Shown: piece by piece, positions 14,449 to 41,960 of the stretch | Layout of the letters: each line of letters opens with the position of its first letter | How positions within the stretch are numbered: position 1 is the first letter of the stretch | Assembly (NCBI GenBank): GCA_976226885.1 | Contig: OZ320317.1 | Span: 60,202,001 to 60,266,000, forward strand | Direction: 5' to 3' | Length of the DNA stretch: 64,000 nt | Source: Iphione sp. A-MEVVRFRX5 | Lineage: Eukaryota | The notes under the pieces: generated by a model | What the model was told of the DNA's origin: nothing | Databases searched by the model: none | What the model saw: only the letters and a program-made list of their open reading frames with translations | Made by a program: the position numbers and the translations under genes

Positions 14449-16251
14449 CTAAGCAGCCGAGACGGTGCGTTGCATGAGCAGTGAAGCCAATGAGCACAAA
14501 CAGAGTAACGCCCTCATGGGCACAGTCCCCGATGGCCCGGCACTGGTACCCTGCCTCACTTTTGCCCAGTCACTCATCGGCAAGGCCCTGCTTGAGCGCC
14601 ACCCTGCCCGCAGTAGGTCCTTGAGGTCTTTTATGAGGATTCGGGTAGTCATTTCCTTGTCCTTCGCTAGGTTGGTGTTCTCTTGCGGGTCAGACATGTG
14701 GTCATAGAGCTCGCTGCCCAGCAGAGGCTGGTCCCACAATGCCTCCTGCGTTTCCATGTTGTAGCGCACCCACTCGGTGTACCTGTATCTGGAGGTACGC
14801 ACGCTGTAGCCCATCGACTGATAGGGTGAGCGGTAGATCTGTGAAAAAGCAGCCCCCTTTGCACCGGGTAAATTGGGGTCGTCCACCAGGCCTGCAAAAC
14901 TCGAACCCTCTCGGCAGACATTCGTGTTTCGAGTCACGGTCGCGTTCTCTGGGCAGAGCTCGATCTCTGGCAGCCCAGCTAGTTCGACCAGGGTCGGAAA
15001 GAGGTCGACCAACTCGACCAGACGGGTACTGACCGCTGGGCGAACGGAGGTGCGTCCGGGCACATGGACGATAAGCGGCACCTGAAGGGCCACCTCGAAG
15101 TTAGTGTTTTTAGTCCACAGGCCATGCTCGCCAAGCTGATAGCCGTGATCACCTAACAGAACAACGACAGTGTCCTTGTCCATCCCCAAGTCCTCCAATG
15201 CTTTCAGCACTCGTCCGATCTGGTAATCAACATAGCTAACAGAAGCATAATAGTGTCGCCGAAGGTTCTTTACAACCCTCGGCGGCAGGTTGGACCTCTC
15301 AGCACCATTCCAGGCGAGTTCGCTGATGTCGTCGTAGCCACGTAGCTCCGAGCCCGTGAACCAGGCCACGTTGGGCATATTACTCGGAGGATCGGGATTC
15401 TCGGGTTGGGGTACCTGATTACTGGGATACACATCCAGGTAGCGGCTCGGCACAATGAACGGCAAGTGTGGCAGGCGGAAACCCACTGCCATGAAGAAGC
15501 GGCTGCCATCGTCGACTACTTCCGGTGCTATCTGGCGGAGCGTATCGACGGCCTTAGTGGCGATCTCCTCGTCTCGGAGGGGGTAGTCAAAAGAGGTGTT
15601 GTATGAGCGGTAGCTGTTCTTCTTCCGAAACATGTTCCAGTAGCCCTCACTTTCGGCATGGTAGTAAGGGAAACGATTTAATGTCCACGACTGTGGGTCG
15701 TCGTTGTCGGATGCGCGGCGGCCGGGGTGGAACACTTTGCCCATGCCAATCGACAGGTAGCCCTCGTTCTTGAAGTACTGGGGGATGGAGTAGAAGTCGC
15801 CTGCAGCACGTCGCCAAAACGTCGTACTGTCGTGTACTCGGGTGGTGTCAGGCCTTCGACCTGTCAGAAACGACGTCCGACTAGGCGAGCACAGAGCCAC
15901 CTGGGCGTAGGCACGACCGAGCACCAGACTCTTGCTGGCCAGCTCGTCAATGTTCGGGGTATACATGAGTGGCATGGTCTCGAGACCAATACCGAGGTCC
16001 GTGTAGACGTCCAACTGTGGCCTTAAGTCATCCGCGATGAGTAGCAGGACGTTCTTTCTCGTGTCCGCTGCCACAACTGGCCCCAAGCACAGAACCAGCG
16101 CTAACCAGCACAGCACGAGAAGCATGTTGAGGGAGGCCATGCTAGATCCACGGCGATCTGACTGGACGGGCGCCCCGATGTAATCCATAGCGAGAGTCCT
16201 GTGGCGGGGATGAAACGTCCCCATGTGCACAGCTAGATGGGCCAGAGCCAT
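14449..16251 (-). CDS. IDS: Iduronate-2-sulfatase-like formylglycine sulfatase, single coding exon (start at 16251 or 16140)
   Basis: Uninterrupted 600-aa ORF. Motifs: NVLLLIADDLRP, formylglycine motif CSPSRTSFLTGRRPDT, GKVFHPG, GF..PHLPF, YYASVSYVD..IG, GDHG..LGEHG.W.K, ELYDH..DP.E..N. A signal-peptide-like segment follows Met at 16140. IDS-like rather than proven orthologue. Confidence 0.88.
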   Translation of the reverse strand: MALAHLAVHMGTFHPRHRTLAMDYIGAPVQSDRRGSSMASLNMLLVLCWLALVLCLGPVVAADTRKNVLLLIADDLRPQLDVYTDLGIGLETMPLMYTPNIDELASKSLVLGRAYAQVALCSPSRTSFLTGRRPDTTRVHDSTTFWRRAAGDFYSIPQYFKNEGYLSIGMGKVFHPGRRASDNDDPQSWTLNRFPYYHAESEGYWNMFRKKNSYRSYNTSFDYPLRDEEIATKAVDTLRQIAPEVVDDGSRFFMAVGFRLPHLPFIVPSRYLDVYPSNQVPQPENPDPPSNMPNVAWFTGSELRGYDDISELAWNGAERSNLPPRVVKNLRRHYYASVSYVDYQIGRVLKALEDLGMDKDTVVVLLGDHGYQLGEHGLWTKNTNFEVALQVPLIVHVPGRTSVRPAVSTRLVELVDLFPTLVELAGLPEIELCPENATVTRNTNVCREGSSFAGLVDDPNLPGAKGAAFSQIYRSPYQSMGYSVRTSRYRYTEWVRYNMETQEALWDQPLLGSELYDHMSDPQENTNLAKDKEMTTRILIKDLKDLLRAGWRSSRALPMSDWAKVRQGTSAGPSGTVPMRALLCLCSLASLLMQRTVSAA

Positions 16252-16369
16252 GGTGCCGACTGCAAGGTAACAGGAGTGTTCATGTTGAGGATATCCTTTG
16301 TTTTTTTAACACTTAATCAAATCAGCAAACCGTATCTTTGCCCTAAATAGCCTCATAGGGATGTGGTCG

Positions 16370-16960: not shown

Positions 16961-19584
16961 GACACAAAAAAAACATGCTACAATCGCAGTGAGCATGGAC
17001 TTAAAAGACGAGAGATGTGCTACTGTGCTTGATCCTGGAAATATGTAGTCTAATTGTGTGCATGATAAAACAGACACTGTTCGTTACAGTGCAAGGAGTG
17101 AAAATCGTTTGCTGAAGAAACCTCAATTAATAACTCACAGTTGCTGTAGTTAATTAATGACGGATGGAACATTATTTGAATGAATTTCCATTACTTTGTG
17201 ATAAGATTGGGGAGTTAATTCTATCAAAATGTGATTTCGTGAACTTTCAAAAATAGTTGTTGGTCCGGCGTTTGAATTCACTTAAAAAGTGTTAATTCTC
17301 TTCTGCACTTAAACATAATGATTCTATTGATGAATGCTATTTGTTTCCTTTGAATGATTAAATCAGTACACCGAAGGGCTGTTCTAATATGAGACTTACG
17401 CAAGTCATTGTCACAAAAGATTTCAAACTGAGGCTGAGGGGTGTGACGGTGGGTGATGCCGGTGGGTGGGAGCGGAGCTGGGGTGTGGTGGGGGCAAGGC
17501 TTGGGGGTTTGACAGGAATGAAACACATCTGCTGCTGCTGGACCATAGTGAATGGGTTGTGCCGCGCTTATTATCATGTAACTGGGTCACTCGTGGCTAG
17601 CACATGGATACATTAGCGTCCCGCGATCAGTCTTTGTCTGAGCACTTCCTCGTCCTTGCAGTTGTCCTCACACGGGCTATAACGTCTAGGAACTTCCCTC
17701 TAACCTTTGAGGATGAATCATCAGCCTTCAGTCAGCCTGCACGGGCTCCAGACGAAGAACCTCTGGAAAGGTCCTCATTCATGAGTATCATCATTTTATT
17801 CAGAAAACCTATTAACATGTTTGATACCAGCACGGCAGCTTCATTATGAAAACTTTTGTATGTAGCAACCCTTAAAAATCATCATTTCATTTTAAAATTT
17901 TCTTTTAGAAATAAACGTAATGCCCGTAGTTGGGAGCCCACCATCACAAATTATGGCTGTCCCTCAATGGCGTTATCAATGAAATTGTGGCAAGGGCAGG
18001 GCGACGACAAGCACTATTCGCCAGTATCTACTTTAAAACTCACACCCATTGGTGACATGAATAAACGTTTACGAAATGTACACGGAGAACACGACGCAGA
18101 GAGCCCAAGAATAGAATTACGCCAGATGTTACCAAGATATACAGACAATATATGTAGATTTGTATTCCCATCTAGCTTGTTGTGGCTCCGGTGCGCCTCT
18201 ATATCTTAGACACAGATTATTATTCAATCAAGATTCAAGATTTAAGAAATTTTTATTAACCAAGTCTCCACTTTTACATAGAGCTCTTCTTAATTAACGA
18301 ATGAATCTATATGTGCTCAACAGTACATCAGGAATATTGTATGTAGCATGAACGAACTATCCTGTATCAATACACGCGATAAAAATATATGATATATTAG
18401 CAAAAACGTATCTGAGAAAGATTAGTACACGCACCATAAAGCAACGAAATCACAGATAGATGAATTTCCATTCGCAACACTATTCCCAGGAGGACAAGAT
18501 GTTTTGCCCATAGCTAATCTTGTACTTTCAGACATCTAAGCATAGACAGGTATCACAGAAATATATTACCGCTGAATGAAGATTGCAAAAAATTACAATT
18601 GTGGTAGAGAACTGCTGTTCTGTACGACGAGACGTGAATAAGGACATTTGTATTTGTATTTGTAATTTACATAAAGGGATCAAGCCTTTACGTCAGTATT
18701 GCAGGTAGTCTACAAATATATCTTGATCATCTGAAAGTTCACATTGATCACAGGAGGTGTATAAAAAATGTAGTGGGTTACAATAGTCATATACATGTAT
18801 GCTTTTGACTACACTACAAATTGCAAGTTCTAGTATCAGCTTACGACCGAAACAATGTCGCGTTAGTTATACTGACGCACACACCAAACACATAAGGTCC
18901 CCCGGGGAGTGTCAGACCAAGAAATATGACTTTTGTTAAGAACGAGACAGAAAGATTATACACTATGACGCAATGTATGCTCGCAAAAATCCAACAGCCG
19001 GATCATGGGTAGCCAGGCGTCTCTTTATTGCAGTGCAGGAAATAGACGTTTGAAACAGTAAGTTGTCTTGTCGCATGCACTGAGTGCTGAACACATCACG
19101 CCATATTCCAACAACTGCTGACATAAGCCGTGCATGGCTCGGACAGCGGCCAAGCCACAGGACCATGAGAAGCGATGGTCAGCGATATTGCTGCTCCTCC
19201 GCAGCCCTTTTGACCTATCGCTCGGTGGCTTGGATATTGTCCAACACAGGTTGGGTGTGGAGGGGGGGGGGGGTTTCAAGTTGTCGCCGATAACACATCA
19301 CCAAAACTTCAAAATGCCCATGTTGCTGAAAAGAGGAAGCAGATAACGCTTCATCAAGAATTGTTTCTCTGATAGCGCATCACCAGTAAATCCTAAATAA
19401 CATTTGGTGCACAATTTAAAGGGCAAACAATGGTTCGCGGGGAATTAAAAGCCCCATTGCCGCTTCCATAAAATAGTTCATACGCCCTGTTCCAACCTTC
19501 AATTGTCTTTGCATCATGGAGCCACTAAAACCTTGGTAAGTGGAGGTCATGTCTGCTTATAGTACTGTTTAAATTAGAGTGGTG

Positions 19585-19681
19585 AGTAGTAGTAAATAGT
19601 AAGCAGAGAATAGTGTGTTGACTATGCTAATAAGATCAAACATTTTCCCCCCCACCCTAAGCCCCTCCCAGTGGGATCTGT
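19585..19681 (+). repeat. Left terminal inverted repeat (97 bp)
   Basis: Exact reverse complement of 41867-41960 except for one extra terminal AGT unit. Confidence 0.95.
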
Positions 19682-19952: not shown

Positions 19953-20050
19953 TCCCCACATTCAATCCCCACCTCAAGCTTGAGGTGGGAATTGAATGTG
20001 GGGAAGTGTTTTATCTTTGGTTTTGATTTCAGGAACCCCTAGGGGTTCCT
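19953..20050. repeat. Two subterminal palindromes (52 bp and 20 bp)
   Basis: 19953-20004 is TCCCCACATTCAATCCCCACCTCAAG|CTTGAGGTGGGAATTGAATGTGGGGA (26-bp arms, 1 mismatch, no loop). 20031-20050 is AGGAACCCCT|AGGGGTTCCT (perfect). Confidence 0.9.
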
Positions 20051-20637: not shown

Positions 20638-20796
20638 TATTCAGTATACAGAGTAAATATCTGATCCTGCGTGAAAGGACTTCGAGAATGTTTTCTTAAC
20701 CTACAATACGATCTATATTCAGTATACAGAGTAAATATCTGATCCTGCGTGAAAGGACTTCGAGAATGTTTTCTTAACCTACAATACGATCTATAT
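20638..20796. repeat. Perfect 78-bp tandem duplication upstream of polB
   Basis: The unit TCAGTATACAGAGTAAATATCTGATCC...CGATCTATAT starts at 20641 and again at 20719. Confidence 0.92.
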
Positions 20797-20907: not shown

Positions 20908-23900
20908 ATGGAAAGTAGTTTGAGTGGATGCGCATGGAGTGATATTGCTCTGGAGAATTATGTTGAATCCTGTTACGACGCTGACAGATTGCGCTCGTGG
21001 GCAAGATCTGAAGGATTATTGGATCACCCAATTGTTATATCTAGACTTCAGGAACTGGACAATAATGTGGTAAGTAATAGTCAATTAAGATTTTTAATAA
21101 TAATAATAATAATAATAATGATGTTCATAATAATTTCTTTTTTCAATTGTAGATCTCTCAACCTAGTGATCAATTTTGTTTCTCAATGGAGGAGTGGAAG
21201 GAATTACTGTCTAGCTTTGACGATATGGAGGAACTGAATGACTTTATAGTTAGCAACAATCTCCATATAGATGGAGAGGTCCAGAAACGGAGACAAGAAC
21301 TGAAGGAGGTAAGTATTGATTTAGATAAAGTTAAAAGTTCTTTCGCTCTATATATTTGCTTTAGTCTATTGTTGATTCATTTCTCTTCTTTTTTCTTTTT
21401 ATAGCAAAGCCAAGATCGCAACGGAGAGACAAGGCATGAGAGAAATAAGCCTGAAGAATTTACATGTAGAAGCTGTCACTCACATTTTAGTTCAAGACGT
21501 GAGCTTTATTTACATCAGGGACTTCAACATGGAGGAGGAGGGTCTAATGAATTTCAAGACGTTCCATGGCAAACCAAAGCTCCTTGGGTGAATGATAATG
21601 GTGATATTGATGATGACTTGAAGCGAACCTATGATGCTAATCGAAAACATATTTTAAGTTCTCATGAGCATGGTATTATAAATAGCGTGTATAATTTTCC
21701 TACCAATGATTTGGAGAACGGGGTGGGTGAATTAATGCAACATTTTGATGAAGTATACGTACAACAAACAGAAACATTTAAAATGGATATCGCCTTTGGA
21801 ATGATTTTACAGCATGCTGAAACGGAACAGTATCGTTATTTTATCCCATACCATAATATAACTTTATTTGGAGCTCCTGTTAGCTTATCTTCAATTAGAG
21901 ATTTGGATTTGATAAGACAGAGGATTAGAAATTTGGATTTGGAACTCTATTTTAAGCAACAGAGACCGGACACTAAGTGGAAGCTTGTTTTAGTAACCAA
22001 CATTGTCTATTATGTTACTAAAACAGGGCATTTGTTGGGGAAGGGTGTTCTACCAGACTATGTTAAACGTAAGCATTGTATTGAAGGGCTTGAACATCCT
22101 CCAAATAATAGGAAGCATTATTATAATGATTCTCTTTGCATATTTCTCTGCCTAGCTCTCCACAGAGGACAGAATCATAATATTGCAAGTTCTGTAAGGG
22201 TATATTATGATCAATGGCGAACATTTTTGGGTGGTTCTATTCCTCGCAATGCTAAACTTTATAAAGGTATCCAGTATGAAGAACTAACAGATTTTGAGCG
22301 CTGTTTCAATGTCTCTCTCTATATCTATGAATTACAACCCGATGATGTTGCTGTTTTACGCTATAAACCTTCAACCAGATTTAAATCTATTATGTACCTT
22401 AATCAGTATGCCTCTCATTTATCTTTTATAATAAACTTTAATGTATATGCTTCAAAATTTCAGTGTGAATCATGCAAGAAGCATTTCAGTCGTCATTTTA
22501 ATTTTAAACGTCATATAGTTTCCTGCGAACATAGGACCAAATATAATTTTCCAGGAGGCTTTTTCACACCTCCTCAAACAGTATTTGAAGAGTTGGAACA
22601 ATTTGGTATAAATGTTAGTGCTGAAGACAGGTTCTTTCCATGGTTCGCAGTTTTTGATTTTGAAGCGATTTTAGAAAGGATCGAGGAGCAAAGTTCCCAA
22701 AAATTATGTTGGAGTCAAAAACATCAGCCTGTATCAGTATCATTATGCAGCAATGTTGATGGTTTTGAAGCAGCTCATTGCATTATAAATTCAGATTTAG
22801 ATGAGATCTTGCAACAAATGTTCAATTATCTTGAAGATATACAAAGAACTGTTCACCATTTAGCCAAAATGAAATGGGGTAGATATTTAGACGAGCTGCT
22901 TTCAATGATGAAAGCTTGGGCTCCTGATCAAGGAGAGGAGGAGGAGGAGGAGGAGGAGGAGGAGACAGAAGAGGAGGAGGAGGAGGAGGAGGAGGAGGAG
23001 GAGGGCTTAACTCATGAGGGTAATTTGTTCATGTTCCGTCAACTAAAGATGTTGAAGCAAAAATTCATTAACTATATGGAACAGTTACCAGTAATTGGTT
23101 TTAACTCATCGAATTATGATATTAACTTGATTAAGTCTAAGTTATTTGGATATTTTGAGTTTGAGCAAGAAGGTAACCATGGATATGTAATAAAGAAAAA
23201 TAATTCATATTTAAACATATCTAATGATAAGTTCAGATTCCTTGATATATCTCAATTTTTAGCACCTGGCTGCTCGTATGCAAAATTTTTGAAGGCGTAC
23301 GAAGTAGAAGAGACCAAAGGCTTTTTTCCATATGAATACTTTGATTCATTTGATCGACTAGCTGAAACTTCTTTACCACCTCATGATGCTTTTTATTCAA
23401 ATTTAAAGGGTTGTAATATTTCTGTTGAAGAGTATTCATGCCTTCAAAAGGTTTGGCGAGAGGAGAATATGCAAACATTTAAAGATTTTCTAGTCTGGTA
23501 CAACAACAAAGATGTACTACCATTTATAACTGCTTTACACAAACTTCAAAATTTTTATTTTGAAAGAGAGTTGGATGTATTTAAAATAGCGATATCTGTT
23601 CCAGGAATAGCAAGGCGACTCTTATTTCAATGCTGTAAAGATTCAAAGGCATATTTCCAAATTTTTGGTTCTGAAGATGAAGATTTATACAGAACTTTTA
23701 AAAAGAATATTGTAGGGGGTCCTTCTGTCATTTTCAAGAGATATCACAAAAGAAATGAAACATTAATACGGGGAAGAAAAATATGCAAAAAGATTCTCGG
23801 ATTTGATGCAAATGCATTATATCTCTGGGCGATAGGTCAGGACATGCCTACAGGGATTTATGTCAGACGATTGGAAACAACAAGCTTTTGTCCAGAAAGA

Positions 23901-26517
23901 CAGACACGTTACATCAAAATGTTTCAGTGGTTGGACTGGAGAGCTAGCTATGATGGAGTGACTATTGCTCATAAACTCAATAGAGGATATGAGAAAAGGA
24001 TTGGGCCATATTGTGTGGATGGATTTTGTTCTGAAACAAATACTGTATATGAGGTGAATATGATACACAGGTCTTACATATATTATTTTTTCTGAATATT
24101 TTAGTTAGTAATGAAATGATTGTTAAAACTACATAAATTCATATATTTCTTTATTCAGTTTCAGGGTTGCTATTTTCATGGTTGTGAGAAATGTCAAAAA
24201 GACAGAATGACTGAAGTGGAACGTCTTAAACGCTTCGAACGCACTAAACAGAGGAGTGCTTATATCACTGCATTGGGTTATAACTTAGTTGAGATCTGGG
24301 AGTGTGATTTTGATCTGTTATGCCTTTCTGAACCTGCGCTGAGAGCTGTGGATGTCTTACCACCCTTTTCGAGGATTCACTCTGGAGAATTAACGAAGGA
24401 GGATATCATTCAGGCTGTAATCAGCAGAGAATTATTTGGTGTTGTGGAAGTAGATATTCAGGTTCCTGAGCAATGGCCAGTGGGATTTGAAAGAACCTGT
24501 GGTCCTAAAGAATATTTTGAGGAAATGTCTCCTCTGTTTTGTACATCAGAGATTCCCTTTGAGAAGATGGGAGAACATATGCAGACTCATGTGAGAGAAC
24601 ATGATCTATCCCAGGTATGAATATTACATAGTTATATAATTAATCTTGAAGAAATTATATGCTGGCTGAAAGCTTTCAATATGTGGTTCTTTTTTCAGAA
24701 ACCTAGGAAACTTTTGCTCAATGGAATGAAAGCTGAGAAAATTCTGTTAGCCACTCCTTTATTGCAATGGTATTTACAACACGGTATGGAGGTAACTCGC
24801 GTCTACCAGCTGATTGAATTTTCCAGGAAGAAATGTTTTGCTTCATTCAAGGATGAAGTTACAGATGCTAGAAGAATGGGGGATATAGATTCCTCCAAAG
24901 CCATTATAGCGGATACTATGAAGCTAATCGGTATGTGTGGGAAAGGTTTTAGAGTTCAGTTAGAGAGTTATATTTAATATAGATATAGAAGTTTAGAGAT
25001 ATTTGGTTTTGACAGTATTTCTTTTTTTATCAAATTACTGAAGAGCACTCATTCCTTATTTCAGGAAATAGCGCCTATGGTTCACTTATAATGGACAAAG
25101 AAAAACATCAGAATGTTAGCTATATTACTGGAAAGAGGAAGGCTTGTTTGGCTGCCAATGAGATATATTATCGTAAAATGAGTGAACTGGATGGTGATCT
25201 ATTTGAGGTGGAATCCGTCAAAAGGAAGATAATTTTAAATCTTCCTATTTACCTGGGCTACTTTATTCTTCAATATGCCAAGCTGCATATGTTGAGATGG
25301 TATTATGATTGTTTGGATGTTCTGGTGGATCGCTCAGACTTCGAATATATTGAAATGGATACAGGTATGTAGCATAGATCTAATAAAACCATAGCTGAGG
25401 AAGATATATTTTGTTGTATTTACATCTTTATTACTTTATTCTTTCAGATTCTGCATATTTTGCTATTTCCGGGGATAATTTTGAATCTGTGATAAAAGAA
25501 GACAAGAGGGAGCACTATTTCAGTGAGGTGAATGGTTCGTGCTCTTCATCATTATCATCTCTGCTAGAGGCTGGTAGATGGTTTCCACGTGATTGTTGCA
25601 ATGAACATCGTATCTATGATAAGAGAACTCCTGGACTCTTCAAATTAGAAGCCTCAGGTAGCGAAATGATTGCTTTGTGTAGTAAAACTTACATTCTTAA
25701 AACAAATGATGATTACAAACTGAGTTGTAAAGGTATTAACAAGAACAGCTTAGAAGATCCAATGGAAAAGTTCTGCTCTGTACTGAAAACAGGTCAGTCA
25801 GCATCTAGCCTTAATAGAGGGTTTCGTGCAAGAGGTAATACCATATTTACATATCAGCAGAGTAGAGCTGGATTATCTTACTTTTATTGTAAGAGGGAAG
25901 TGTTAGCTGATGGGATTTCCACAAAACCGTTAGATGTAGTATTAAGCCCTTGGCATATTCCACAGTATTTTATTTTCAAGGGAAAAGCAAATCCATTATC
26001 ACCTGATTTTCCATCGAGAATGTATATCTTCAATCAGGTCTTTGATAGTGCACGTGATGCTTACAATCATCAGCTGAAAATAATGAATCATGTAACAGGG
26101 GCTTTTATAAATGAAAAGAGACTGAAACTAACAGAAGTGTGGTTGGAAAAGCGTATTTCCTTAATGAGGGAAATTATTCTGGAAAAAATGAGGATCAGTG
26201 AAGAGGTTCGGCGATCATTAAGGAGAAGCGAGGACTTGGTTCTAGTATATTCTGTTTCAGATAACTATTGGGGAGCAGGCATGAATCAGCGGTTAGTTTC
26301 ACTATCGACCAGCTTTCGCGGGAGTAATATGTTGGGAAAATTGTGGGAAGAAGTACGAGAATTGCATGTAGAGGAAATACACAAGTCCTATCTGTTACGC
26401 TGTTACCACTGTAATTCTAAGAAACCTGATGTTAGGTTCCGAAGGGAATCTGAGAAAGATTTATGTGAGCAGTGCAATAAAAAAAATGAAATGTACCTCT
26501 TTTTGATTTTCTTCTAA
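20908..26517 (+). CDS. polB: Protein-primed family B DNA polymerase, 7 exons, ~1674 aa, with C-terminal NADAR-like domain and C4 zinc ribbon
   Basis: Exons 20908-21069, 21153-21308, 21405-24053, 24159-24614, 24699-24930, 25065-25364, 25448-26517 total 5025 nt; all junctions are GT-AG and in phase. Motifs: ExoI VFDFEA, ExoII GFNSSNYD, ExoIII YNNKDV, PolA FDANALY, PolB KLIG|NSAYG, PolC EMDT|DS. Two zinc fingers and a YE|FQGCYFHGC nuclease-like insert are also present. Confidence 0.93.
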
Positions 26518-26572
26518 TGTATAAATTGCTCAGCCGAAGGATTTCTTTTCAGTTTGAAATATATTTTGAAAG

Positions 26573-27197
26573 ATGTATGAACTTCCTGAGTATGTATTTC
26601 AATGTCCTACAACAATCACTATTAGTGGTTCAACAGGATCTGGTAAAACTTCATGGGTAAAAAAGCTATTATGTAATCCTAGTCTGTTTAGCTTACCACC
26701 CAGTAGAATAATATACTGCTATGGAACCTGGCAGGATGCTTTTGATGATATGAAGAATGTTGAATTTCGAGAGGGGTTGGATATTCCTATGGACACAAAT
26801 GGAGAACATATTGTTCTCATTTTGGATGATCTGATGAATGAAGTTATCAAGTCTCCATCAGCTGAATTGTTGTTTACTAGAGGATCTCATCATAAGAATA
26901 TAACTGTAATTTTTATCGTTCAAAACTTATTTCAGCAGGGAAAGTCTGCACGGAGTATAATGCTTAATACACATTACATGGTTCTCATGCAGAACCCACG
27001 TGATATTCAACAAATCAGAGTGCTTGCCAGACAGTTGGGGATGGAAAACTGTCTCGATCTTTCTTATAAGTTCTTATATGTTAGTGCCCTATGGTTATTT
27101 ATTGGTTGATCTTTCACCGCATAACATCAGAGATTTGAAACTCAAAACTGCAATATTTCCTGGAGAGACTACCATTGTCTATCTACCCAAGTACTGA
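26573..27197 (+). CDS. A32/FtsK-like packaging ATPase with an apparent +1 frameshift near 27086
   Basis: Walker A GSTGSGKT, Walker B LILDDL, GSHHKN, VQNLF..G..ARSI.LN. The conserved C-terminus PYGYLLVDL...IFPGE is in the next frame. Confidence 0.88.
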
Positions 27198-27199
27198 GA

Positions 27200-27622
27200 A
27201 TGAGATTTCCGAAATTCGTAGATGAAGATGTACGTCAGCAGACCTTTGCAGGCTGGAAGCATAGCTTGGACTCAAAGCAAATGGTTGATTGTGGATTCTT
27301 CTATTTAGGAGGACTTGATTCAGTGCAATGCTTTCACTGCGGTGTGCAACTACATTCATGGGATGAAAAAGACAATCCTCTCATAGAACATTTGAAATTT
27401 GCTCCTCACTGTGAATATATATGCAAGAAAGCTCATGTAATTTCATCACTATCAATGGAAATTATGCTAGAAGTCTTGCAACAATCTAAGAAATTACAAC
27501 TGAGAATAGCTGAATTAGAGCAAAAAGTTCATATGAACAATACAGCTGTAGATGAAGTGGATAATACTTTCAGTCTTTTTTCCAACAATAAGAGTAATGT
27601 AGCCAGAGCTGCTGTGCTTTGA
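27200..27622 (+). CDS. Single-BIR inhibitor-of-apoptosis-like protein with a C-terminal coiled coil
   Basis: R..TF..W, GFFY.G..DSVQCFHC...L.SW...DNP..EH.KF.P.C, giving the C-x2-C-x16-H-x6-C zinc ligands. No RING domain. Confidence 0.9.
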   Translation: MRFPKFVDEDVRQQTFAGWKHSLDSKQMVDCGFFYLGGLDSVQCFHCGVQLHSWDEKDNPLIEHLKFAPHCEYICKKAHVISSLSMEIMLEVLQQSKKLQLRIAELEQKVHMNNTAVDEVDNTFSLFSNNKSNVARAAVL

Positions 27623-27721
27623 GGTTAGTTCAACATTATCCTAAGTTGGTTATGAATACCTCAGCAGTCGAAATAGCTGAGCATTTACACTTTAGATACC
27701 GATAGAGATGGAGCTAAGTTT

Positions 27722-28048
27722 GTGGAAAAAATGTCACAGAAACTTAGATCTTCAGCAGACTTTTTCCGGTTATTAATGAATACTGAAAAGGAACAAGCAC
27801 TACAGCTATTGAATTCTATTACTGCTCTACAGACGCTTGCTCTGAGTGAAATAGCTTTGAACCTTACTATTTTACCTCTTTCTCAGAAAACCAAGAAACT
27901 TTTAACTCGATACAAGAGGTTGGTTTCTCTTCTGAGTAAGAAGACTAAATCCATCACAGCTAAAAGAAGTGCTATAAAGAAAAACCGTCGTACTATTCTC
28001 AATATTTTACAAAGTATTAAGCCTGAATTATTGGAATTGGTAAAATGA
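27722..28048 (+). CDS. Basic helical protein resembling a small gene commonly found in Maverick core blocks
   Basis: 108 aa, Lys/Leu-rich (LSEIALN, KKLL..YK.LV.LL.KK). Its stop overlaps the next start (ATGA). Confidence 0.7.
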   Translation: MEKMSQKLRSSADFFRLLMNTEKEQALQLLNSITALQTLALSEIALNLTILPLSQKTKKLLTRYKRLVSLLSKKTKSITAKRSAIKKNRRTILNILQSIKPELLELVK

Positions 28049-28512
28049 AAAAGATGGTACTAATTCCATTTGATCAGTTCTCTCGAAATAAGTTAAATTC
28101 ATCTCAAGAACCAACTGTTTCAATTAACAAGCTCGACACTGATCTAGTGTTACTTCCTTTTGGAAAACAACAAAGGAAAGCAGCTGAGGCTCTTTTAGGA
28201 TATGTGGAAAGGAACATGGACTGGAATAGGAATGGTGAAATCATCATTGATGGTGTGGTTGTTACTGGTAGCCATATCACAGATCTGTTGAAGGATGCCC
28301 TATTCAACTATAGGAACTTTGAACCTGTGGGCTATAAGGAATTTTATCAACATCTTCGTGAAATCCCACTTACATTGATCAGGAATCCCAAACGTCGAGT
28401 TCTGATAGGACGTGGACAATTACCACCGCCTGGAATACCAGTTGAGCAAACTCCTATTGACATCACAAAAGACAACAAAAAAGACTGGAAAACTAACTGG
28501 AAAACATTATGA
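28045..28512 (+). CDS. Maverick hypothetical protein upstream of the integrase
   Basis: 155 aa with W...GE..IDG..V.GSHI.DL and P.G..EF...L..IP..LI.N, recalled as typical of the Maverick gene preceding the integrase. Confidence 0.75.
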   Translation: MKKMVLIPFDQFSRNKLNSSQEPTVSINKLDTDLVLLPFGKQQRKAAEALLGYVERNMDWNRNGEIIIDGVVVTGSHITDLLKDALFNYRNFEPVGYKEFYQHLREIPLTLIRNPKRRVLIGRGQLPPPGIPVEQTPIDITKDNKKDWKTNWKTL

Positions 28513-29606
28513 GTAAAGAGTTAAGTAATATATATTTTGATCCCTCACGATCATCTTCATTCGGTGGGATTAATAAACTATATCAGGAGGCCAAGACTCT
28601 GGGATATAAGAAGAAGGATGTAGAGAACTGGCTTCAACAACAAGATGTCTACACCTTACATAGACGACTTAATCGGAACGTTAAAAGACCGAGGGTAGTA
28701 GTATCCTCAAAAGATCAACAGTGGGATGCGGATACTATGAACATGGTCTCTTTTGCTGAAGAAAATGATGGTTATAGTTATGTTCTAGTATTAATTGATA
28801 TATTTACTCGCTTTGTTTGGACTGTTCCTCTAAAAAAGCTGACAGGTAAAGAAATGGTCGATGCTTTAAAGCAGGTTTTTCCTCAGCACAAACCTAAAAA
28901 ATTAAGAACGGATTCAGGCTCCGAATTTGTTAATAAGGTTGTGAAAAAATATTTGCAGGAAGAAAATGTGTATCATTTTACTACAACTAATCTTGTGAAA
29001 GCTAATTACGCTGAAAGGGTAATTAAGTCTTTGAAAACAAAATTGGTTCGATATATGCATCAGACTCAATCCCATCATTGGCTTGATGTTTTAGCTAAAA
29101 TAACTGATGCATATAACATCACAAAACATAGCTCAATTAAAATGACACCTACACAGGCTAGATCTGTGAATCCTATTATCCTCTGGAAAAATCAATTTAA
29201 AGAGAAAAACCCTAGGATAAGGAAATCTAAACCTAAATCAAAACCAAAACCTGTGTATAAATTTAATATTGATGACCGTGTTCGTCTTGCACGCTATAGA
29301 ACCCCCTTTGAACGAGCTTATGATGAGAAATGGACACATGAAATATTTACTGTTACTAATAGAGCATTACAGCAAGGGATTTCACAATATACTATAAAAT
29401 CCTGGGATAATGAACCTGTGATAGGAAAGTTTTATGAAGAAGAGCTAGAGAAGGTTATTGTTAATGAGGATACTGAGTTTAAAATAGAACGTATTGTAAA
29501 GAAAAAGAAGATGAATGGACAAAATGGTTACGTTGTAAAGTGGTATGGTTGGCCGGAGAAGTATAATTCCTGGGTTCCTATTAGTGATGTCAAAAAGCTT
29601 AAATAG
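28509..29606 (+). CDS. int: Retroviral-like DDE integrase with C-terminal chromodomain
   Basis: QQWDAD (D), LRTDSGSEF (D), NYAERVIK (E). The C-terminal FKIERIVKKKK...YVVKWYGWPEKYNSWVP is a chromodomain. Confidence 0.95.
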   Translation: MSKELSNIYFDPSRSSSFGGINKLYQEAKTLGYKKKDVENWLQQQDVYTLHRRLNRNVKRPRVVVSSKDQQWDADTMNMVSFAEENDGYSYVLVLIDIFTRFVWTVPLKKLTGKEMVDALKQVFPQHKPKKLRTDSGSEFVNKVVKKYLQEENVYHFTTTNLVKANYAERVIKSLKTKLVRYMHQTQSHHWLDVLAKITDAYNITKHSSIKMTPTQARSVNPIILWKNQFKEKNPRIRKSKPKSKPKPVYKFNIDDRVRLARYRTPFERAYDEKWTHEIFTVTNRALQQGISQYTIKSWDNEPVIGKFYEEELEKVIVNEDTEFKIERIVKKKKMNGQNGYVVKWYGWPEKYNSWVPISDVKKLK

Positions 29607-29666
29607 TTCAACTCTTCTCATGTTCATCATTCTGTGTTTTGATTTCAAGCTGTAACAACAAGTAGG

Positions 29667-30050
29667 ATGTATCTCTTTATTAAGCAGAATGATTCTGAGC
29701 TGTTCTATCCTAAAAACACCAGTAGTGATTTCATAGTTGAACTACCACATTCATTAAAATTAAAAGGGGATTGGAGCTGTGCTCTTGTAGAATGTAATAT
29801 AGATAATCCTTCTTCTAAGGAATTATATATTTATTCCGATTTAATAGCATCAAGTGTTGTAAAAGGGAAAACAGCTCCCATTCTCAGAGTAACCAGTGAG
29901 AATGGTGAATTTGTGAATCCATATTACATACCAGTGATTAAGGATTATGTCTTTAGGTTCCGTGTTTGGATTAGAACAGTGGATGGAAAGCTATTTGAAC
30001 AAGATCTTGAAAATTGTCGCCTTGTCTTACATCTTAAAAAGGAGAGCTAA
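29667..30050 (+). CDS. Minor capsid protein (penton, single jelly roll), very compact
   Basis: 127 aa with F.VELP..L.L.G.W.CALVE, LYIYSD.I...V.G...PILR and NPYYIPV. Confidence 0.8.
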   Translation: MYLFIKQNDSELFYPKNTSSDFIVELPHSLKLKGDWSCALVECNIDNPSSKELYIYSDLIASSVVKGKTAPILRVTSENGEFVNPYYIPVIKDYVFRFRVWIRTVDGKLFEQDLENCRLVLHLKKES

Positions 30051-30099
30051 CTCCACTTAGAGTCATTTCAAATCAGACAAGCTAAGAGTCACAAGCAGC

Positions 30100-30471
30100 A
30101 TGAGCTTCATTCCCTATGTTCCAGACTTAGAAGCTTGGAAACAAGTTCCTAACCAAAAGGATAGTAAACCTTTCTATGTTCTTCAGAAGGGAAAGGGAAG
30201 TGATATTAAATTGGTTAGTCCTCAAGAGGGAGTCATTGAGAGAGCAAAGTATAAACTAAGTCGTCAGATAAAAACAACACAACCAAGAACACGTACTCAG
30301 TCGAGATCTAGGAAACGAAGGAGAGGGAACAAGAAGAAATCTATATCTGTATCTCATAAGAAGGTAAAGAGAAAGACAAAGACAAAGACAAAGACAAAGA
30401 AAACCAGTCTGAAAAGAAAACCAACCAAAACATCTAAAAGGAAATCTGGTAGTAAGAGAAGAGGACGATGA
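30100..30471 (+). CDS. Highly basic putative DNA-condensing core protein
   Basis: The C-terminal half is very K/R/S/T-rich, including a KTKTKTK repeat. An LQKGKG motif resembles an adenain cleavage site. The gene sits directly before the major capsid gene. Confidence 0.75.
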   Translation: MSFIPYVPDLEAWKQVPNQKDSKPFYVLQKGKGSDIKLVSPQEGVIERAKYKLSRQIKTTQPRTRTQSRSRKRRRGNKKKSISVSHKKVKRKTKTKTKTKKTSLKRKPTKTSKRKSGSKRRGR

Positions 30472-31799
30472 GTTATATACTGAGTAATGCACAAGAGGGT
30501 TTTGATGATCGCTTAGCCCTCTTCAATATTCCACCTGTAGAAACCGCAGTTCAAGAAATATATTATAAGGATTATCGTCCCATTGGTCAGATTGCTTCTG
30601 ATTCTACTTTGGAATTTGATGTGAGCAATAATTCACCTGATTATATTGTTTTGAATGAAATTTCATTGATAACAACGATTCAATTACACACTGACCAAGA
30701 TAAGCCAATCACCACAGCTCATGATGTGACTCTCATTAATTTTGCCGCTGCTACAATGTTCAGACAACAAGATTTTTATATTCAACAACAGCTAGTTACT
30801 AGCACTATAGGTGCTAACTTTCCTTATAAGGTAATGATAGATGGTTTGCTTGGACAAGGTTTAAATGATCAACTTAGTTGGATGTCTGTAGCCGGCTATA
30901 TGAAAGACACCGCCCTGCTTATGGACGATCATGAAGGAAAATCTAGTGGAAATACAGGTTTAACAGACAGATTTGATAAGACTAAAGCAGGAAAAAAGCC
31001 TGTATTCAAAACAAGACTCTTTATGGATATCTGTCAGCAGAAAAAAATGTTGTTAAACGGCTTACCTTTAAGTATTAAACTATATCCGAGCACAGAGAAA
31101 TTTAGACTGCTCTACAAAACTCAACCAACTACTGCACCTGCTACTACACCAAAGTCCTATAAAGTAAAATTACTAGATGCAAAATTACTTGTTCCTTTTG
31201 CCCGAATTCATCCTGGAATGATCATGGCACAGGGTGACATGTTGAAAAAGGAAATGGCATTGTATCCTTTTACTAGAAGCGAGATAAAGTCCTATAATAT
31301 TCCTAAAGGTAGTTTAAACTGGAGTATGGATAATCTTTTTCAAGATATAATTCCCAAGCGTTTGGTTATGGGTTTCGTTTTAGCAAGTGCTTATACTGGT
31401 GAAAACGAAAAAAATCCTTTTAATTTTCAACACTTTGATGTATACTATCTCGACTTCCAAGTTAATGGGCAGAGTAGTGGAGGTCAAATCCTACAACCAG
31501 ACTACAAAAATCATAATTATGTTTCTGCTTTTGTCAGACTATTTGAGAGTATGCCTCCTGATCAGACAGAACCACCAAATATTACCTATTTAGATTTTAG
31601 AGGGGGATATTGTTTATATGTCTTTGATTTAGAAAAGGGAAAGGATTCTACATATTCAATCCCATTACGAAAGGGTCAAACAAGGCTCTCTGTGAAATTT
31701 GCTAAAGCTCTACCCGAACCCGTTTCAATAATTGTGTATGGAAGTTTTGAGGCTCTTATGAAAGTAGATCAAGCAAGAAATGTTATAATCGAGACCTGA
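30468..31799 (+). CDS. Major capsid protein (double jelly roll)
   Basis: 443 aa with L.LF..PPV...V.E, YIVLN...L, P.R...GFV...AY.G....NPFNFQHF, F..GYCLY.FDL and L.VD..RNV. Confidence 0.92.
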   Translation: MSYILSNAQEGFDDRLALFNIPPVETAVQEIYYKDYRPIGQIASDSTLEFDVSNNSPDYIVLNEISLITTIQLHTDQDKPITTAHDVTLINFAAATMFRQQDFYIQQQLVTSTIGANFPYKVMIDGLLGQGLNDQLSWMSVAGYMKDTALLMDDHEGKSSGNTGLTDRFDKTKAGKKPVFKTRLFMDICQQKKMLLNGLPLSIKLYPSTEKFRLLYKTQPTTAPATTPKSYKVKLLDAKLLVPFARIHPGMIMAQGDMLKKEMALYPFTRSEIKSYNIPKGSLNWSMDNLFQDIIPKRLVMGFVLASAYTGENEKNPFNFQHFDVYYLDFQVNGQSSGGQILQPDYKNHNYVSAFVRLFESMPPDQTEPPNITYLDFRGGYCLYVFDLEKGKDSTYSIPLRKGQTRLSVKFAKALPEPVSIIVYGSFEALMKVDQARNVIIET

Positions 31800-32260
31800 T
31801 GCTCATAAAAATGGTTGTACAGGTACAAAACTCACATTCAGCAATGAACAGTGAACAGATAACTAAATATCTTCTATCAGATACCCATACTTCTAAATAT
31901 TTTAAGGGTGTATTAGCCTATGATGAGATGCCTGAAGAAATTACCTATCCATGTTTGTTCGTTGTTAACACAGATCCATCATTCCGACCAGGAAATCATT
32001 GGGTCTGTGTCTTCTGCGCGGATGTTAATGAATACTTTGATTCTTTAGGGTTTCCACCACTAGAGTTAGAACATTTCCTTTCAAAACAAAGAAAAAATTA
32101 TAAATATAATACTAAAATATTACAGGGTAGCAAAAGTGATGTCTGTGGAGATTATTGTGTTCTCTTTGCTTATTTTCGCTGTAGAGGTTATAGCATGGAA
32201 TATTTTTTATCCCTATTTAGCTCGGATTTAGATTACAATGATAAAATAGTTGAATTATGA
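31799..32260 (+). CDS. Adenain-like cysteine maturation protease
   Basis: VVNTDP...PGNHW (His), EYFDSLG (Asp), LQ.....VCG.YC (Gln, Cys). The real start may be MNSEQI at 31844. Confidence 0.92.
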   Translation: MLIKMVVQVQNSHSAMNSEQITKYLLSDTHTSKYFKGVLAYDEMPEEITYPCLFVVNTDPSFRPGNHWVCVFCADVNEYFDSLGFPPLELEHFLSKQRKNYKYNTKILQGSKSDVCGDYCVLFAYFRCRGYSMEYFLSLFSSDLDYNDKIVEL

Positions 32261-32478
32261 TAAACTTAGAATGAATAGTATCATTATACAACATGTATTC
32301 ATTAGAAATAAAAAAGAAATGTATCCAGCAAAATACTTGTTTATTATATATTCTGTTGAAATCTCTTGAATTCTCACAACCTTTATATGAGGCAAAAAAA
32401 AGTAAAAGAAGCTTTTTGAATGAAATACGCAGGTGATATATATATATATACCTGTGCTCAAAGCAACTGAACGATAAA

Positions 32479-33600
32479 TAATCTTGACTCAGCAAGAGGT
32501 AAATATACTATGGTTATCTTAAACACTCTTTGACTTCAACATAGCTTCATCATGGATCTCGCCTTATTTTTTGTTACGTCTGTGTCATACATTTTAAAAT
32601 GGAATCAAACCAACTACACGAGAGATAATCTTAACTCAGCAAAATGCAAACATACTATGGTTAATATTAAACAGTCTTTGACTTCAACATAGCTTCATCA
32701 TATAACTCACAAAAGAAAACTATATGAGTTTATTCCCCACTTACACATCTCTTTTCAAGAGATAAATATTTATGTAATGAACCTGGCTAACTAGCTGGTT
32801 TTTAACAAGAGAACACATTGTATGAGCCCCATACTTCAAGCTCTACTACTCCTTGGAGGATAATCTACAAGTAAATATTAAAAAAGGGAACACACACTTA
32901 GCAATATATCCACGCTTAACTAGCGAGCCCTGAACCCAACTAACTAGCTAGGTTCTAACAAGAGAACATACGATATGACTGTCACGCTTTAAGCTTGTCT
33001 ACTCCTTTGAGTAGTACAGTAAATTCTTTTTTAAAAGTCTAGGACAGTAATAATAATAGCTGTGCCCAGCTAGCTAGTAGATTATAAAAGGTCTACACGA
33101 GTTCCTTGAGTAAATATCTTGAAAAAGAGAAGACACTCGACATTATCATCACGCTTAACTAGTGAGCCCAGAACCCATCTAACTAGATGGATTCTAACAA
33201 GAGAACATACTGTATGACTGTCACGCTTTAAGGTCTACTCCTTTGAGGAGTACCTCTTTTGATATAAAATATATGTGTGAGCACCACGCTTTAAGGTTTA
33301 CTCAGCTGAGACCCAGCTAGCCAGCTAGCAAACTAATTGCTAGATCTATGTATGTATGTATGACTAACATGCTTCAAGGTCTGTTTAGTTGTCCTTGAGC
33401 AATATTTTCTATATAAGAATGAGCACCACGGTTTAAGGTCGACTCCTTTGAGCAATATCTCTTTTGATATAAAATATATGTGTGAGCACCACGCTTTAAG
33501 TTTTACTCAGCTGAGCCCAGCCAGCCAGCCAGCCAGCTAGCTAGTTAGCTAAAACCTTATAAAAAGTCTACAGCAGTTCTTTAAGTAAATATCTTGAACA
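32479..33600. repeat. Non-coding mosaic of nested imperfect direct repeats inside the Maverick
   Basis: Paired blocks: ~32479-32551 with ~32626-32701, ~32911-32992 with ~33149-33232, and ~33255-33310 with ~33458-33513. CACGCTT(T)AAG and (A)GCTAGCT motifs recur. Confidence 0.85.
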
Positions 33601-33648
33601 TGAGAAGATGGATTCTCCTATGCAAACCTGTAAAGGTTTCGAGCTAAA

Positions 33649-34523: not shown

Positions 34524-35330
34524 TTATGAAGATACATACTGATTCTGATATGCATGTCCATGTTCGGGCGCTCCATCAAGAGGTAGCTCCATCGCGCCCA
34601 ATCCTTCAATCTGCCCATTCAACGCACCCAGCATCATCGCCTCCTGGATATTTCTTCTATTTTTTTTACAATAGCGATGGACATAAACTAGAGCTGCAAT
34701 AATCATGATGAAAATCACAGCCAGTCCAACATATAACAAAATCCATACTTTGTTTTCAATTGGACCCATTCCATTATCCGCATGCTCTGATGTCGTAGTT
34801 CTTGACTTAGCTGGACTCAATCGAGGGTTAATATCATCTGTATCAAGCTCATCAGTATTACGATGAATACTTTCCACCAAACTGCCCTCGCCGTCTGGAG
34901 CTGGGCCAACAGTGTCATAATATTCAGTGTCATGATCATCATCATCAGTAAAGTCATTCGGAACAAGCTCCCTCTCACTAGAGGAGGAAGAGGACTCGCA
35001 ATCTGATTTGATTGCAAGTTGCTCGTGGCTTTGAATTCTGCTGCAGGGAATATCCGTATTTCGTACATCAATGAGCAGAGTTTGAGGAAATAATTTGTAA
35101 ACCAGTGTCAAGTTCAATGTGTCCAGTTTCGAATAGCGGAAATCCAAATACCTGAATCCGTAAAACTCCTTTCCCGCTACAAGCAGCGAGCGAATCAAGC
35201 TAGTTATAGGAATACTCCGGCAAAGTAGTCGTGAACCCTTGCATCTGCATCTTTCACACAAGTCATTAGACTGAACAGATGAAATTAAAATAACACAAAC
35301 TAAAGAAGAGAAAACGAAAAATTTTGCCAT
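34524..35330 (-). CDS. Type I membrane protein 1: signal peptide, short LRR module, acidic Ser/Thr stalk, TM, Tyr-containing tail
   Basis: LRRNT-like CERCRC.GSRLLC, LRR-like LDFRYSKLDTL and LIDVRNT.IPC, TM VWILLYVGLAVIFIMIIAALVYV followed by a basic stop-transfer segment. Confidence 0.85.
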   Translation of the reverse strand: MAKFFVFSSLVCVILISSVQSNDLCERCRCKGSRLLCRSIPITSLIRSLLVAGKEFYGFRYLDFRYSKLDTLNLTLVYKLFPQTLLIDVRNTDIPCSRIQSHEQLAIKSDCESSSSSSERELVPNDFTDDDDHDTEYYDTVGPAPDGEGSLVESIHRNTDELDTDDINPRLSPAKSRTTTSEHADNGMGPIENKVWILLYVGLAVIFIMIIAALVYVHRYCKKNRRNIQEAMMLGALNGQIEGLGAMELPLDGAPEHGHAYQNQYVSS

Positions 35331-35747
35331 AATGGCTGCGTTGCAAAGTCACTGTAAAGGGATCAGGTTAGTTTCCCATTTTTTTCGCTAGCGAGCTAGC
35401 GAGCGAATATACTGTTTCAGTGGTGATGATCAGTTCTATATTATACATAAATAATGATATGATATGATATGATAAGATAAGTGAGGGGTTAAATAGTAAA
35501 ACAGTGATTTGTTTTCGTATTTGTTATTGATTCAATTCACTAGATGGCGCCCTAGTTCATAAAAAACTGATTTAGTTTTGTATCTCAGTAGATGGCATGC
35601 TAGTACATAAAACGCTGCCCTGAGCTATGTTTTAAAGGACTAGCACTGGCTTATTTAACTTTTTTGAGGACAGAGTCCCTTCCTGTATACGTCTCGTTGT
35701 AAACACTAGTCTCTATAATGACTAGAAAAAAAAAATCATAAGAGAAA

Positions 35748-36404
35748 ATGGTCACTTCTCCCGAAAGAATCAAAACTCCTAATATAATATCATATTATTG
35801 GTTGAGGGAATTTGAAGACGAATCTAAACACGGTGTTCGCTTTCTACATGAATCAGTAGGAGAGAGAAATGAATTTCCACCTAATTCCATAATATTACAA
35901 TATTATCGTTGGTGTTTAAGAGACTATGAAATGAATATTATATATGTTAGTGAGGATGTTTTCCTTTTAAGAGAGTTGTGTGATATCATTGGAAAAAGAG
36001 CTTATAATTCAGCTATGTTCAGGGGCTTCATCTGTGAAAGTGATAAGATATACTTTATTCAACAGAAACCACATATTTATGGAATTATTACTGAAATAGC
36101 TAATCGACCAGATAGGGTGGATGTTATGAAGAAGGTATACACTTATTTGTTGCATCTTGAATTCAGCAAATTAATTAGCTTAGACTTCATCATAGAAAAT
36201 CTATTTGAGGAATATGCAATATACTGTCATCTTCAAATAAACTACAAACGACTGGCGAATGCTAGTTCCTATATGGCTAATTTCTTCCAAGTTGAAAGCT
36301 ATTTCAGTTTTAAAGAAACTACAGATTTCCTCAATAATCAAAATCCTGCGTCCACACTGCGTGACGTAGCATCACAAAAAATTTATGAATTTACATTCAT
36401 CTAA
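35748..36404 (+). CDS. Unknown family, paralogue P1 (218 aa)
   Basis: Shares YYRWCLRD...IYVS.D.FLLR.LC...G.RAYN, MK.VY.Y.L, RLA....Y and Q.P...IYEF with P2 and P3. Confidence 0.85.
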   Translation: MVTSPERIKTPNIISYYWLREFEDESKHGVRFLHESVGERNEFPPNSIILQYYRWCLRDYEMNIIYVSEDVFLLRELCDIIGKRAYNSAMFRGFICESDKIYFIQQKPHIYGIITEIANRPDRVDVMKKVYTYLLHLEFSKLISLDFIIENLFEEYAIYCHLQINYKRLANASSYMANFFQVESYFSFKETTDFLNNQNPASTLRDVASQKIYEFTFI

Positions 36405-36728
36405 ATACAACTCTTTGAGTATGTTATCTTAGGAATGTATTTATGCAATATCATGCAGGCAATGACCTAGCAACGAATAGATTCGTGAGGATGAACACGA
36501 TGAATTACTTGAACCACTAGAACAGTACGATTAACCTGATTTTATAAATTCCATATTGCGCAAATGTTGACGTATCTGAATATATTAGCCTTGTAAATAT
36601 CTAGAACCAATGGTTGAAGCGAACTCATCCTTTTAAATAACTGCTATGGACGTTTTCTCTCTCAGAGGCGCAGCTGACTTCTGAGAGCATTTTCCCGATA
36701 CCTATTTTTTCCCCAAATTTTAAACGAG

Positions 36729-37791: not shown

Positions 37792-38118
37792 CTTTGAGTA
37801 TGATGATGTAATACTTTTTATTATCTATAAAACTTATTACAATGCAACATTAACTAGCTTATAGTTTTGGAATCTAATTCATATCAATTAGCCACTACTA
37901 CAATATATACTTATAATAATGATAGATTTAATTGTAGCATATTATACACTGCTTCAAAGCTCGGTAAAATTGTAGCTGTTCTTTGTTCACTTATTCATAT
38001 AGTTATACTTCTGTTTCAAGCGTATAACATAGACTTATAATGATAAACTTGACTTGTAGTATATACTGATTTAAAGCTCAATAAAAAAAAATTGTTCTTT
38101 CTTCACTTATTCTTGTGG

Positions 38119-39051: not shown

Positions 39052-39323
39052 ATCTAAGTAAAATATTCAGAACAGGAGACACGAAGTGTGCACGACGAGT
39101 CCCGGCAGACAAATAAGAAGGGTCACAAGTCAGGTTCGCGATCAGTCAGCTCACTTAATGAGAGTCATAAATCATTGAGAAAAGGGGGTCAGTAAATAAA
39201 GGGTTAGAAGTCGGGTTTAGACTTGATGCTCTAAGAAACGCGCGGAACAGCGAACAAGATAGGGATAGACCTAAAATATGGATAAATAACTAACACAAAA
39301 TCTTTAATAGAAACTCTTTATTT

Positions 39324-40106: not shown

Positions 40107-40141
40107 ATAGTCAGACAGAGTTATATATTCCTGAAAGATAT

Positions 40142-40792: not shown

Positions 40793-40826
40793 CACACTTT
40801 TATATTTACCAAATGATACATTATAC

Positions 40827-41866: not shown

Positions 41867-41960
41867 ACAGATCCCACTGGGAGGGGCTTAGGGTGGGGGG
41901 GAAAATGTTTGATCTTATTAGCATAGTCAACACACTATTCTCTGCTTACTATTTACTACT
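41867..41960 (-). repeat. Right terminal inverted repeat (94 bp)
   Basis: Reverse complement of the left TIR. It ends ...TATTTACTACT, followed by the TSD GTGGTG. Confidence 0.95.

Follow-up and report, generated by a model that had tools for sequence, protein, structure and literature searches.

A Polinton/Maverick clade in Iphione sp. with predicted spliceosomal introns confined to the DNA polymerase gene

Polinton/Maverick elements have generally been described as carrying intronless core genes. Intact vertebrate Mavericks have no introns, intactness in that study being defined by intronless open reading frames (ORFs), and the same paper cites Kapitonov and Jurka 2006 as agreeing that Polinton genes are intronless (Barreat and Katzourakis, PMC8097293). 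In a nematode Maverick the core genes are likewise intronless and only cargo genes bear introns (Widen et al., 10.1101/2022.07.12.499685), and the survey of Jeong et al. admitted polymerases only if their ORF was 900 amino acids (aa) or longer (bioRxiv 10.1101/2023.08.22.554363). Here we describe an element that departs from this trait. In a 64,000-nucleotide (nt) stretch of contig OZ320317.1 from Iphione sp. A-MEVVRFRX5 (hereafter the window), a Polinton/Maverick of 22,376 base pairs (bp) at 19585-41960 carries a gene for a protein-primed DNA polymerase of family B (pPolB) with six introns, its other core genes being uninterrupted. The intron-bearing layout is real, old, clade-wide and confined to one gene. 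Our literature search for a spliced Polinton polymerase found none, with the limit that subscription papers, Repbase entries and supplements may hold cases, and none is described in the accessible text of PMC8502044, PMC11161782, PMC12220804, PMC11296320, PMC11131425, PMC5803895 or PMC5753468.

The polymerase gene runs on the + strand from 20908 to 26517, its seven exons totalling 5025 nt (1674 codons plus the stop), and each exon translated separately has zero internal stops. All six introns are GT...AG with pyrimidine-rich 3' ends, 83-134 nt long and of GC content 0.15-0.28 as against 0.36-0.43 in the exons, and their phases are 0, 0, 0, 0, 1 and 1. An in-frame stop lies inside five of them; intron 1 instead shifts the frame, which leads to a stop at 21237. 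Exon 1 (20908-21069, 54 codons) encodes a conserved helical module of unknown role that is 43-83% identical in 11 of 12 other loci, with nonsynonymous below synonymous divergence (pN<pS), and is followed by intron 1 (21070-21152, 83 nt), exon 2 (21153-21308, 52 codons) and intron 2 (21309-21404, 96 nt). Exon 3 (21405-24053, 883 codons) holds the zinc finger, the exonuclease, motif A and the start of a VSR-like insert, and presumably, from the architecture we expect of such polymerases, a terminal protein/vOTU region; as an intron-free run of 2649 nt it is only marginally unusual (P=0.04). Intron 3 (24054-24158, 105 nt) falls within the VSR-like nuclease motif. Then come exon 4 (24159-24614, 152 codons), intron 4 (24615-24698, 84 nt), exon 5 (24699-24930, open in the exon-by-exon translation), intron 5 (24931-25064, 134 nt) within polymerase motif B, exon 6 (25065-25364, also open), intron 6 (25365-25447, 83 nt) within motif C, and exon 7 (25448-26517), which encodes the remaining palm and thumb, a C-terminal NADAR domain and a Cys-rich tail.

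Intronless paralogues in the same genome, against which introns 3 and 4 are insertions of exactly 35 and 28 codons and which are contiguous across introns 5 and 6, serve as a natural and independent ruler that places introns 3-6 exactly. The original prediction, made from the letters of the window, had proposed six short AT-rich GT-AG introns whose removal gives a 1674-aa ORF, introns 5 and 6 interrupting motifs B and C and intron 3 a nuclease-like motif. Exon-wise translation and the paralogues bear out the ORF, and the paralogue alignment the placement in the motifs; of the span it gave to the gene, 20908-25449, the start stands and the end does not, as the gene continues to 26517. With regard to the N-terminus, the exon-1 helical module also occurs in one to three tandem copies in three uninterrupted database pPolBs (P0040, P0062 and P0059). 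Exons 1 and 2 are only weakly similar, and the idea that they are duplicates of one another was not established (no BLASTP match; profile probability 2.9%).

The interrupted layout extends well beyond the window. A search with exon 6 gave 1216 genome candidates, of which the top 150 were scored: in 101 of these (71-100% identity) exon 6 sits in an open frame of only 107-161 aa, and the other 49 hits (55-59% identity) come from separate families, the open frame being 1348-1704 aa long in 45 of these hits. The intron-bearing layout is common to at least 101 copies in the genome, and the intronless sister families are abundant and have intact polymerase frames. From 42 intron-clade loci that were analysed, five proved to be refetched duplicates, leaving 37 distinct loci, which are non-independent (12 are near-identical). 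A GT-AG intron is found at site 3 in 34 of the 37 (one is uncovered and two have a mis-set boundary), at sites 4 and 5 in all 37, and at site 6 in 36, the remaining one being non-canonical; at none of sites 3-6 does any of the 37 loci lack an insert. Introns 1 and 2 are visible by eye in 11 of 12 longer loci, with GT-AG ends at the site of intron 1 in the 11, and the twelfth locus is incomplete. A seventh intron, of phase 0, lies after codon 101 of exon 4 in 14 of the 37 loci and is cleanly absent from 23, including the branch of the window. Intron positions are maintained across about a dozen diverged subfamilies. We also observed some variation in intron and exon content. In L032, L033 and L050 a short intron (~25-40 nt) lies between exons 2 and 3, where the zinc-finger stretch is also matched a second time, which suggests an extra small exon in this subfamily, possibly by exon duplication between phase-0 introns. 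Enlarged introns of ~350-820 nt with their splice ends kept occur at intron 5 of L013-L016, intron 4 of L021 and intron 3 of L020 and L022.

The element is a Polinton/Maverick, with which its size, inverted arms, 6-bp target site duplication, pPolB, integrase and ATPase all fit. The arms (19588-19681 and 41867-41960) are 94 bp each and 100% complementary, the termini are made of AGT repeats, and the duplication, GTGGTG, lies at 19579-19584 (+) with its second copy at 41961-41966. Over the ATPase region 12 copies share 99% identity or more, 11 of them with both element ends present, and eight sister copies differ from the window copy at 8-18 of 5025 exon bases with unchanged splice sites, four of the eight having a frame break or stop within a polymerase exon. 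The intron-bearing clade has multiplied recently. One might nevertheless suppose that chance insertions or the decay of a dead copy have been mistaken for introns, the more so as the window copy carries an ATPase frameshift (~27060-27110, +) that is private to it among the 12 near-identical copies. We give this practically no credence, as the same sites, GT-AG ends and open exons recur in the 37 loci and in other samples, which refutes it; the inserts are retained by a whole active clade and so are not neutral damage.

The inserts also behave as spliceosomal introns would be expected to, judged on a set of 55 introns from 12 representative loci. Donor and acceptor positions follow a consensus (A at +3 in 45, G at +5 in 47, T at +6 in 40, C or T at -3 in 54), and the signals of U2-type introns are all present, with a GT-R-A-G-T-like donor, a pyrimidine tract, a YAG acceptor and a frame restored upon removal. 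An in-frame stop occurs in 54 of the 55, and each of the 14 introns with a length divisible by three contains one. Selection is evident in the exons, with a ratio of nonsynonymous to synonymous divergence (dN/dS) of 0.11-0.14 at dS 0.6-2.1 in five comparisons; the polymerase exons are under purifying selection. The intron interiors, in comparison, align clearly in only seven of 281 same-site pairs, every one between close relatives. The median intron is 104 nt long, versus ~390 nt for 25 host chaperonin introns, a length estimated from profile-match gaps. Whether the intronless families share a proto-splice context at the corresponding positions had a mixed answer in the six readable loci of 12.

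A recent gain from introners (intron-generating transposons) inserting into integrated copies might also produce multiple introns, and introners do occur in dinoflagellate Polinton-like proviruses (PMC11957031). Within this gene, however, the six introns are mutually dissimilar (15 pairs, the lowest P being 0.025 and the rest >0.1), and the intron positions predate subfamilies separated at dS ~2. We reject a recent introner origin as very improbable on dissimilarity and age, the comparison being one within the gene with no genome-wide search for intron copies; an ancient introner origin is still conceivable.

What might the introns do? The original prediction held that polymerase activity depends on complete host splicing, and this is supported: with any one intron left in, the protein would end ahead of a complete active site, and no polymerase could be made. 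It went on to propose a tissue-specific or latency switch. Regulated intron retention, limiting the polymerase to the germline or to an activation state, has a precedent in the third intron (IVS3) of the Drosophila P element, kept in the soma via an exonic silencer and in the germline via chromatin guided by PIWI-interacting RNA (piRNA) (PMC7776569). Truncation by a retained intron speaks for such regulation, but it holds for any intron. Among the 55 introns of the 12 loci we found no conserved intronic element and no consistently weak donor (exonic silencers were not searched for): the splice sites are near consensus and the interiors unalignable. The AATAAA that had been noted in intron 6 is indeed present at 25382, where 0.86 occurrences would be expected by chance across the six introns; of 11 other representative loci just one has it in intron 6, and six of the 55 introns contain AATAAA where shuffles predict 10.2. 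The idea that it acts as a switch through alternative polyadenylation was discarded, its frequency being below chance. The intronless sister families, too, are equally successful and as abundant; we think regulated retention unlikely.

The positions of the introns are a different matter. The five internal sites lie in more conserved stretches of the protein than expected by chance (0.77 vs 0.53, P=0.002 over the core; P=0.013 when restricted to the polymerase part), and related sites are interrupted elsewhere. Five of 120 listed database homologues end, or enter a non-homologous stretch, exactly at site 3, and one of them, P0001, also stops at the seventh-intron site, both as judged from protein ends. 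Among 83 related loci from other samples, 10 have clear GT-AG introns in the polymerase, at 14 positions. Three coincide exactly with those of the Iphione clade, namely site 3, which is interrupted in four loci, and, both in L109, site 4 and the site of the seventh intron; five lie within one base to four codons, and six are elsewhere. L106, for instance, has one-base phase shifts at motifs B and C. The five near positions among the 11 non-identical ones give P 0.0002-0.004 under conservation-weighted nulls, a value that depends on the null, with the caveats that the 4-codon window was picked post hoc and that the automatic caller overlooked, or scored as weak, two of the 14 positions. Viral contigs yielded only three distant related loci. 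As for how intron positions compare across Mavericks, as the original prediction asked, the same sites recur within the clade and in some loci elsewhere, and the intronless sister families are collinear without the inserts, which fits one of the refuting conditions it had set, although the inserts are not neutral damage.

Part of exon 3 was used for a quick maximum-likelihood tree of 55 rows, from which five redundant genome rows and most of the distant database rows were omitted. It places the spliced subfamilies and three database proteins on one branch, with 97 in the Shimodaira-Hasegawa-like approximate likelihood ratio test (SH-aLRT); one of the three, P0003, reads through site 3 without an insert. 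The sister of this branch consists of the intronless families of the genome and one database protein ending at site 3, the two together having SH-aLRT 98, and site-3 carriers are interleaved with uninterrupted relatives. This scatter fits either an old intron with many losses or repeated gain.

These patterns might suggest that the introns are selected shields, or occupy insertion hot spots, gained repeatedly at the same motifs where they break DNA that nucleases recognise, candidates being the VSR-like domain of the element's own or a competing Polinton's polymerase, and homing endonucleases. The conserved internal sites, the near and identical positions and the scattered carriers of site 3 all speak for such an account. 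The same pattern would be produced by intron sliding, or by ancient shared introns with many losses, and detection favours conserved regions, in addition to the caveats on the near positions given above. The nuclease target is moreover putative and the VSR assignment weak: the region in an intronless paralogue matches Pfam Vsr at E=0.086 and PDB 1vsr at E=0.89, and some database homologues are named very-short-patch-repair endonuclease. On balance we regard shields or hot spots as a rather improbable explanation.

The introns are confined to the polymerase. Downstream, an uninterrupted gene block (26573-32260, +) encodes the packaging ATPase, a BIR-domain protein, two small conserved ORFs and an integrase-chromodomain protein, followed by capsid, core and protease-like ORFs, with Pfam matches to rve (E=3e-12), Chromo (E=6e-9), Pox_A32 (E=2e-5) and BIR, and with single-block matches in other subfamilies. 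The capsid and protease ORFs have no Pfam match; they are of the expected size and order and conserved across families, and from size, position or order, and motifs we take them to be, in likelihood, a minor capsid protein, a basic core-like protein, the major capsid protein and an adenain-like protease. Nine other spliced subfamilies lack intron-sized gaps in these downstream coding regions (in one only the ATPase was in range), and single copies of those subfamilies show frame breaks in downstream genes. The earlier statement that capsid, integrase and protease are intronless is right as to uninterrupted coding regions, to which we add a frameshift in the ATPase of the window copy. The polymerase has seven intron sites in its 1674 codons and nine other genes have none in 1820 codons, which on target size alone has a probability of (0.479)^7 = 0.006. 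By eye, many families, spliced or intronless, have TATA-like boxes ~25-55 nt 5' of the start codons of the ATPase and minor capsid genes (26518-26526 for the ATPase in the window), which suggests separate promoters within a tightly overlapping gene block; spliced leaders for the structural genes were not supported, there being by eye no conserved acceptor and TATA-like boxes in its place.

This active Polinton clade carries old U2-type polymerase introns, which in our view the host spliceosome probably takes out constitutively, without a dedicated switch. Host RNA polymerase II would transcribe the element within the nucleus, and copying from DNA to DNA would involve no reverse-transcription step to strip introns, so that introns once gained would persist, with precise loss only occasional. 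Selection would keep the splice sites intact and the introns short. As to why only the polymerase has them, most likely splicing would help, or be tolerated in, a long early transcript (in export, or in passing as a host mRNA); the structural genes, which overlap and have TATA-like promoters of their own, would not accept introns. This account of the restriction is the weakest step. Several points weigh against this account. Constitutive splicing is read from the DNA sequence, and the reason offered for polymerase-only introns is a proposal only. Because the piRNA-guided retention of the P-element intron does not depend on a particular sequence (PMC7776569), the host could regulate splicing here even if no signal is conserved. 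That introns in other samples cluster at or beside the same motifs is not accounted for by simple persistence, and success does not require introns, as intronless families thrive in the same genome. This clustering at motifs is the most intriguing part.

The identity of the polymerase rests on 1485 homologues, many with PF03175 or named DNA-directed DNA polymerase, and on motifs A, B and C, which align with uninterrupted relatives; single exons give no direct PF03175 match. Among named proteins, the polymerase is nearest to homologues in bivalves and a sea urchin (Pecten, Mytilus, Pinctada, Tegillarca and Diadema), which fits the group of pPolB2 with a VSR insert in Jeong et al. The C-terminal NADAR domain (25957-26514, +) matches Pfam at E=1.3e-11 (45.5 bits against a curated cut-off of 35.1), has no match in PDB, and is also present in an intronless family (L042) and in the database protein P0004. 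NADARs strip ADP-ribose from guanine in DNA, their catalytic Glu, Lys and Asp being E88, K95 and D171 (PMC11543638); by eye only, the Lys seems to be retained here, as does the Asp that precedes the WG motif, and the Glu position varies. They are found in large DNA viruses and RNA viruses, and neither the accessible text of that viral survey (PMC9503650) nor our literature search yielded a description of NADAR in Polintons. A role against host DNA ADP-ribosylation is a guess.

Several further features of the window were observed. A perfect 78-bp tandem duplication lies at 20638-20793, immediately 5' of the polymerase start, a near-perfect palindrome of ~50 bp (~19955-20005, by eye) within the left element end, and several degenerate direct repeats in the non-coding 32458-33608 3' of the protease gene. 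The BIR-only gene, resembling inhibitors of apoptosis (27200-27622), is common to subfamilies. An accessory region (34524-40846) holds two predicted type-I membrane proteins with Cys-rich N-termini, also common to subfamilies (34524-35348 and 38119-39066, both -), and three to four paralogous unknown ORFs with no Pfam match (35742-36404 and 37108-37791, +; 39324-40151 and 40142-40846, -). Host genes in the window include a polycystin channel exon (8073-9335, +) and a single-exon sulfatase (14449-16305, -).

We note that where core genes are screened as intronless, interrupted Polinton polymerase genes are scored as fossils. The longest open frame at the window locus is 896 aa, stop to stop, just below the published 900-aa cut-off, and none of the 12 spliced loci reaches 900 aa counted from the first Met; surveys therefore likely undercount active elements, and the original prediction that standard ORF callers would misread this gene as a pseudogene is supported. 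A spliced polymerase would imply nuclear, host polymerase II transcription of the replication gene, and replication of the element likely depends on host splicing. With spliced and intronless sister families side by side, one host offers a natural comparison of why viruses gain or keep introns, and of the ways in which intron positions originate, slide and disappear. A bolder and tentative possibility, which we would not yet favour, is that animal Polintons have repeatedly gained polymerase-only introns that converge on the same catalytic and nuclease motifs, splicing being selected as a licence against host surveillance directed at intronless mobile DNA, or as a shield from the motif-targeting nucleases of rival elements, and that ORF-length filters have missed a large and active spliced branch.

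In comparison with known systems, the element is most like the Polintons with pPolB2 and a VSR domain reported from a mollusc and a marine nematode (Jeong et al., bioRxiv 10.1101/2023.08.22.554363), which it resembles in size, inverted ends, 6-bp duplication, integrase, ATPase, polymerase motifs and a VSR-like insert (a weak match here); it differs in its six or seven spliceosomal introns and its C-terminal NADAR domain. Chloroviruses PBCV-1 and NY-2A likewise have a viral family-B polymerase gene with a host-spliceosomal intron (PMC7019647). Theirs, however, is one intron in a giant algal virus, as compared to many introns with fast-diverging interiors in an integrating element of an animal. 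The chlorovirus polymerase is RNA/DNA-primed. The Drosophila P element offers an analogy as mobile DNA whose key enzyme, as would be the case here, needs host splicing, but its IVS3 has a defined silencer and a repressor isoform (PMC7776569), and no such feature was found here in the introns and splice sites compared. Lastly, the introners of dinoflagellate Polinton-like proviruses likewise place spliceosomal introns inside an element (PMC11957031); those are repeated and mostly post-integration, whereas the introns of the Iphione polymerase are mutually unrelated, old and confined to one gene.

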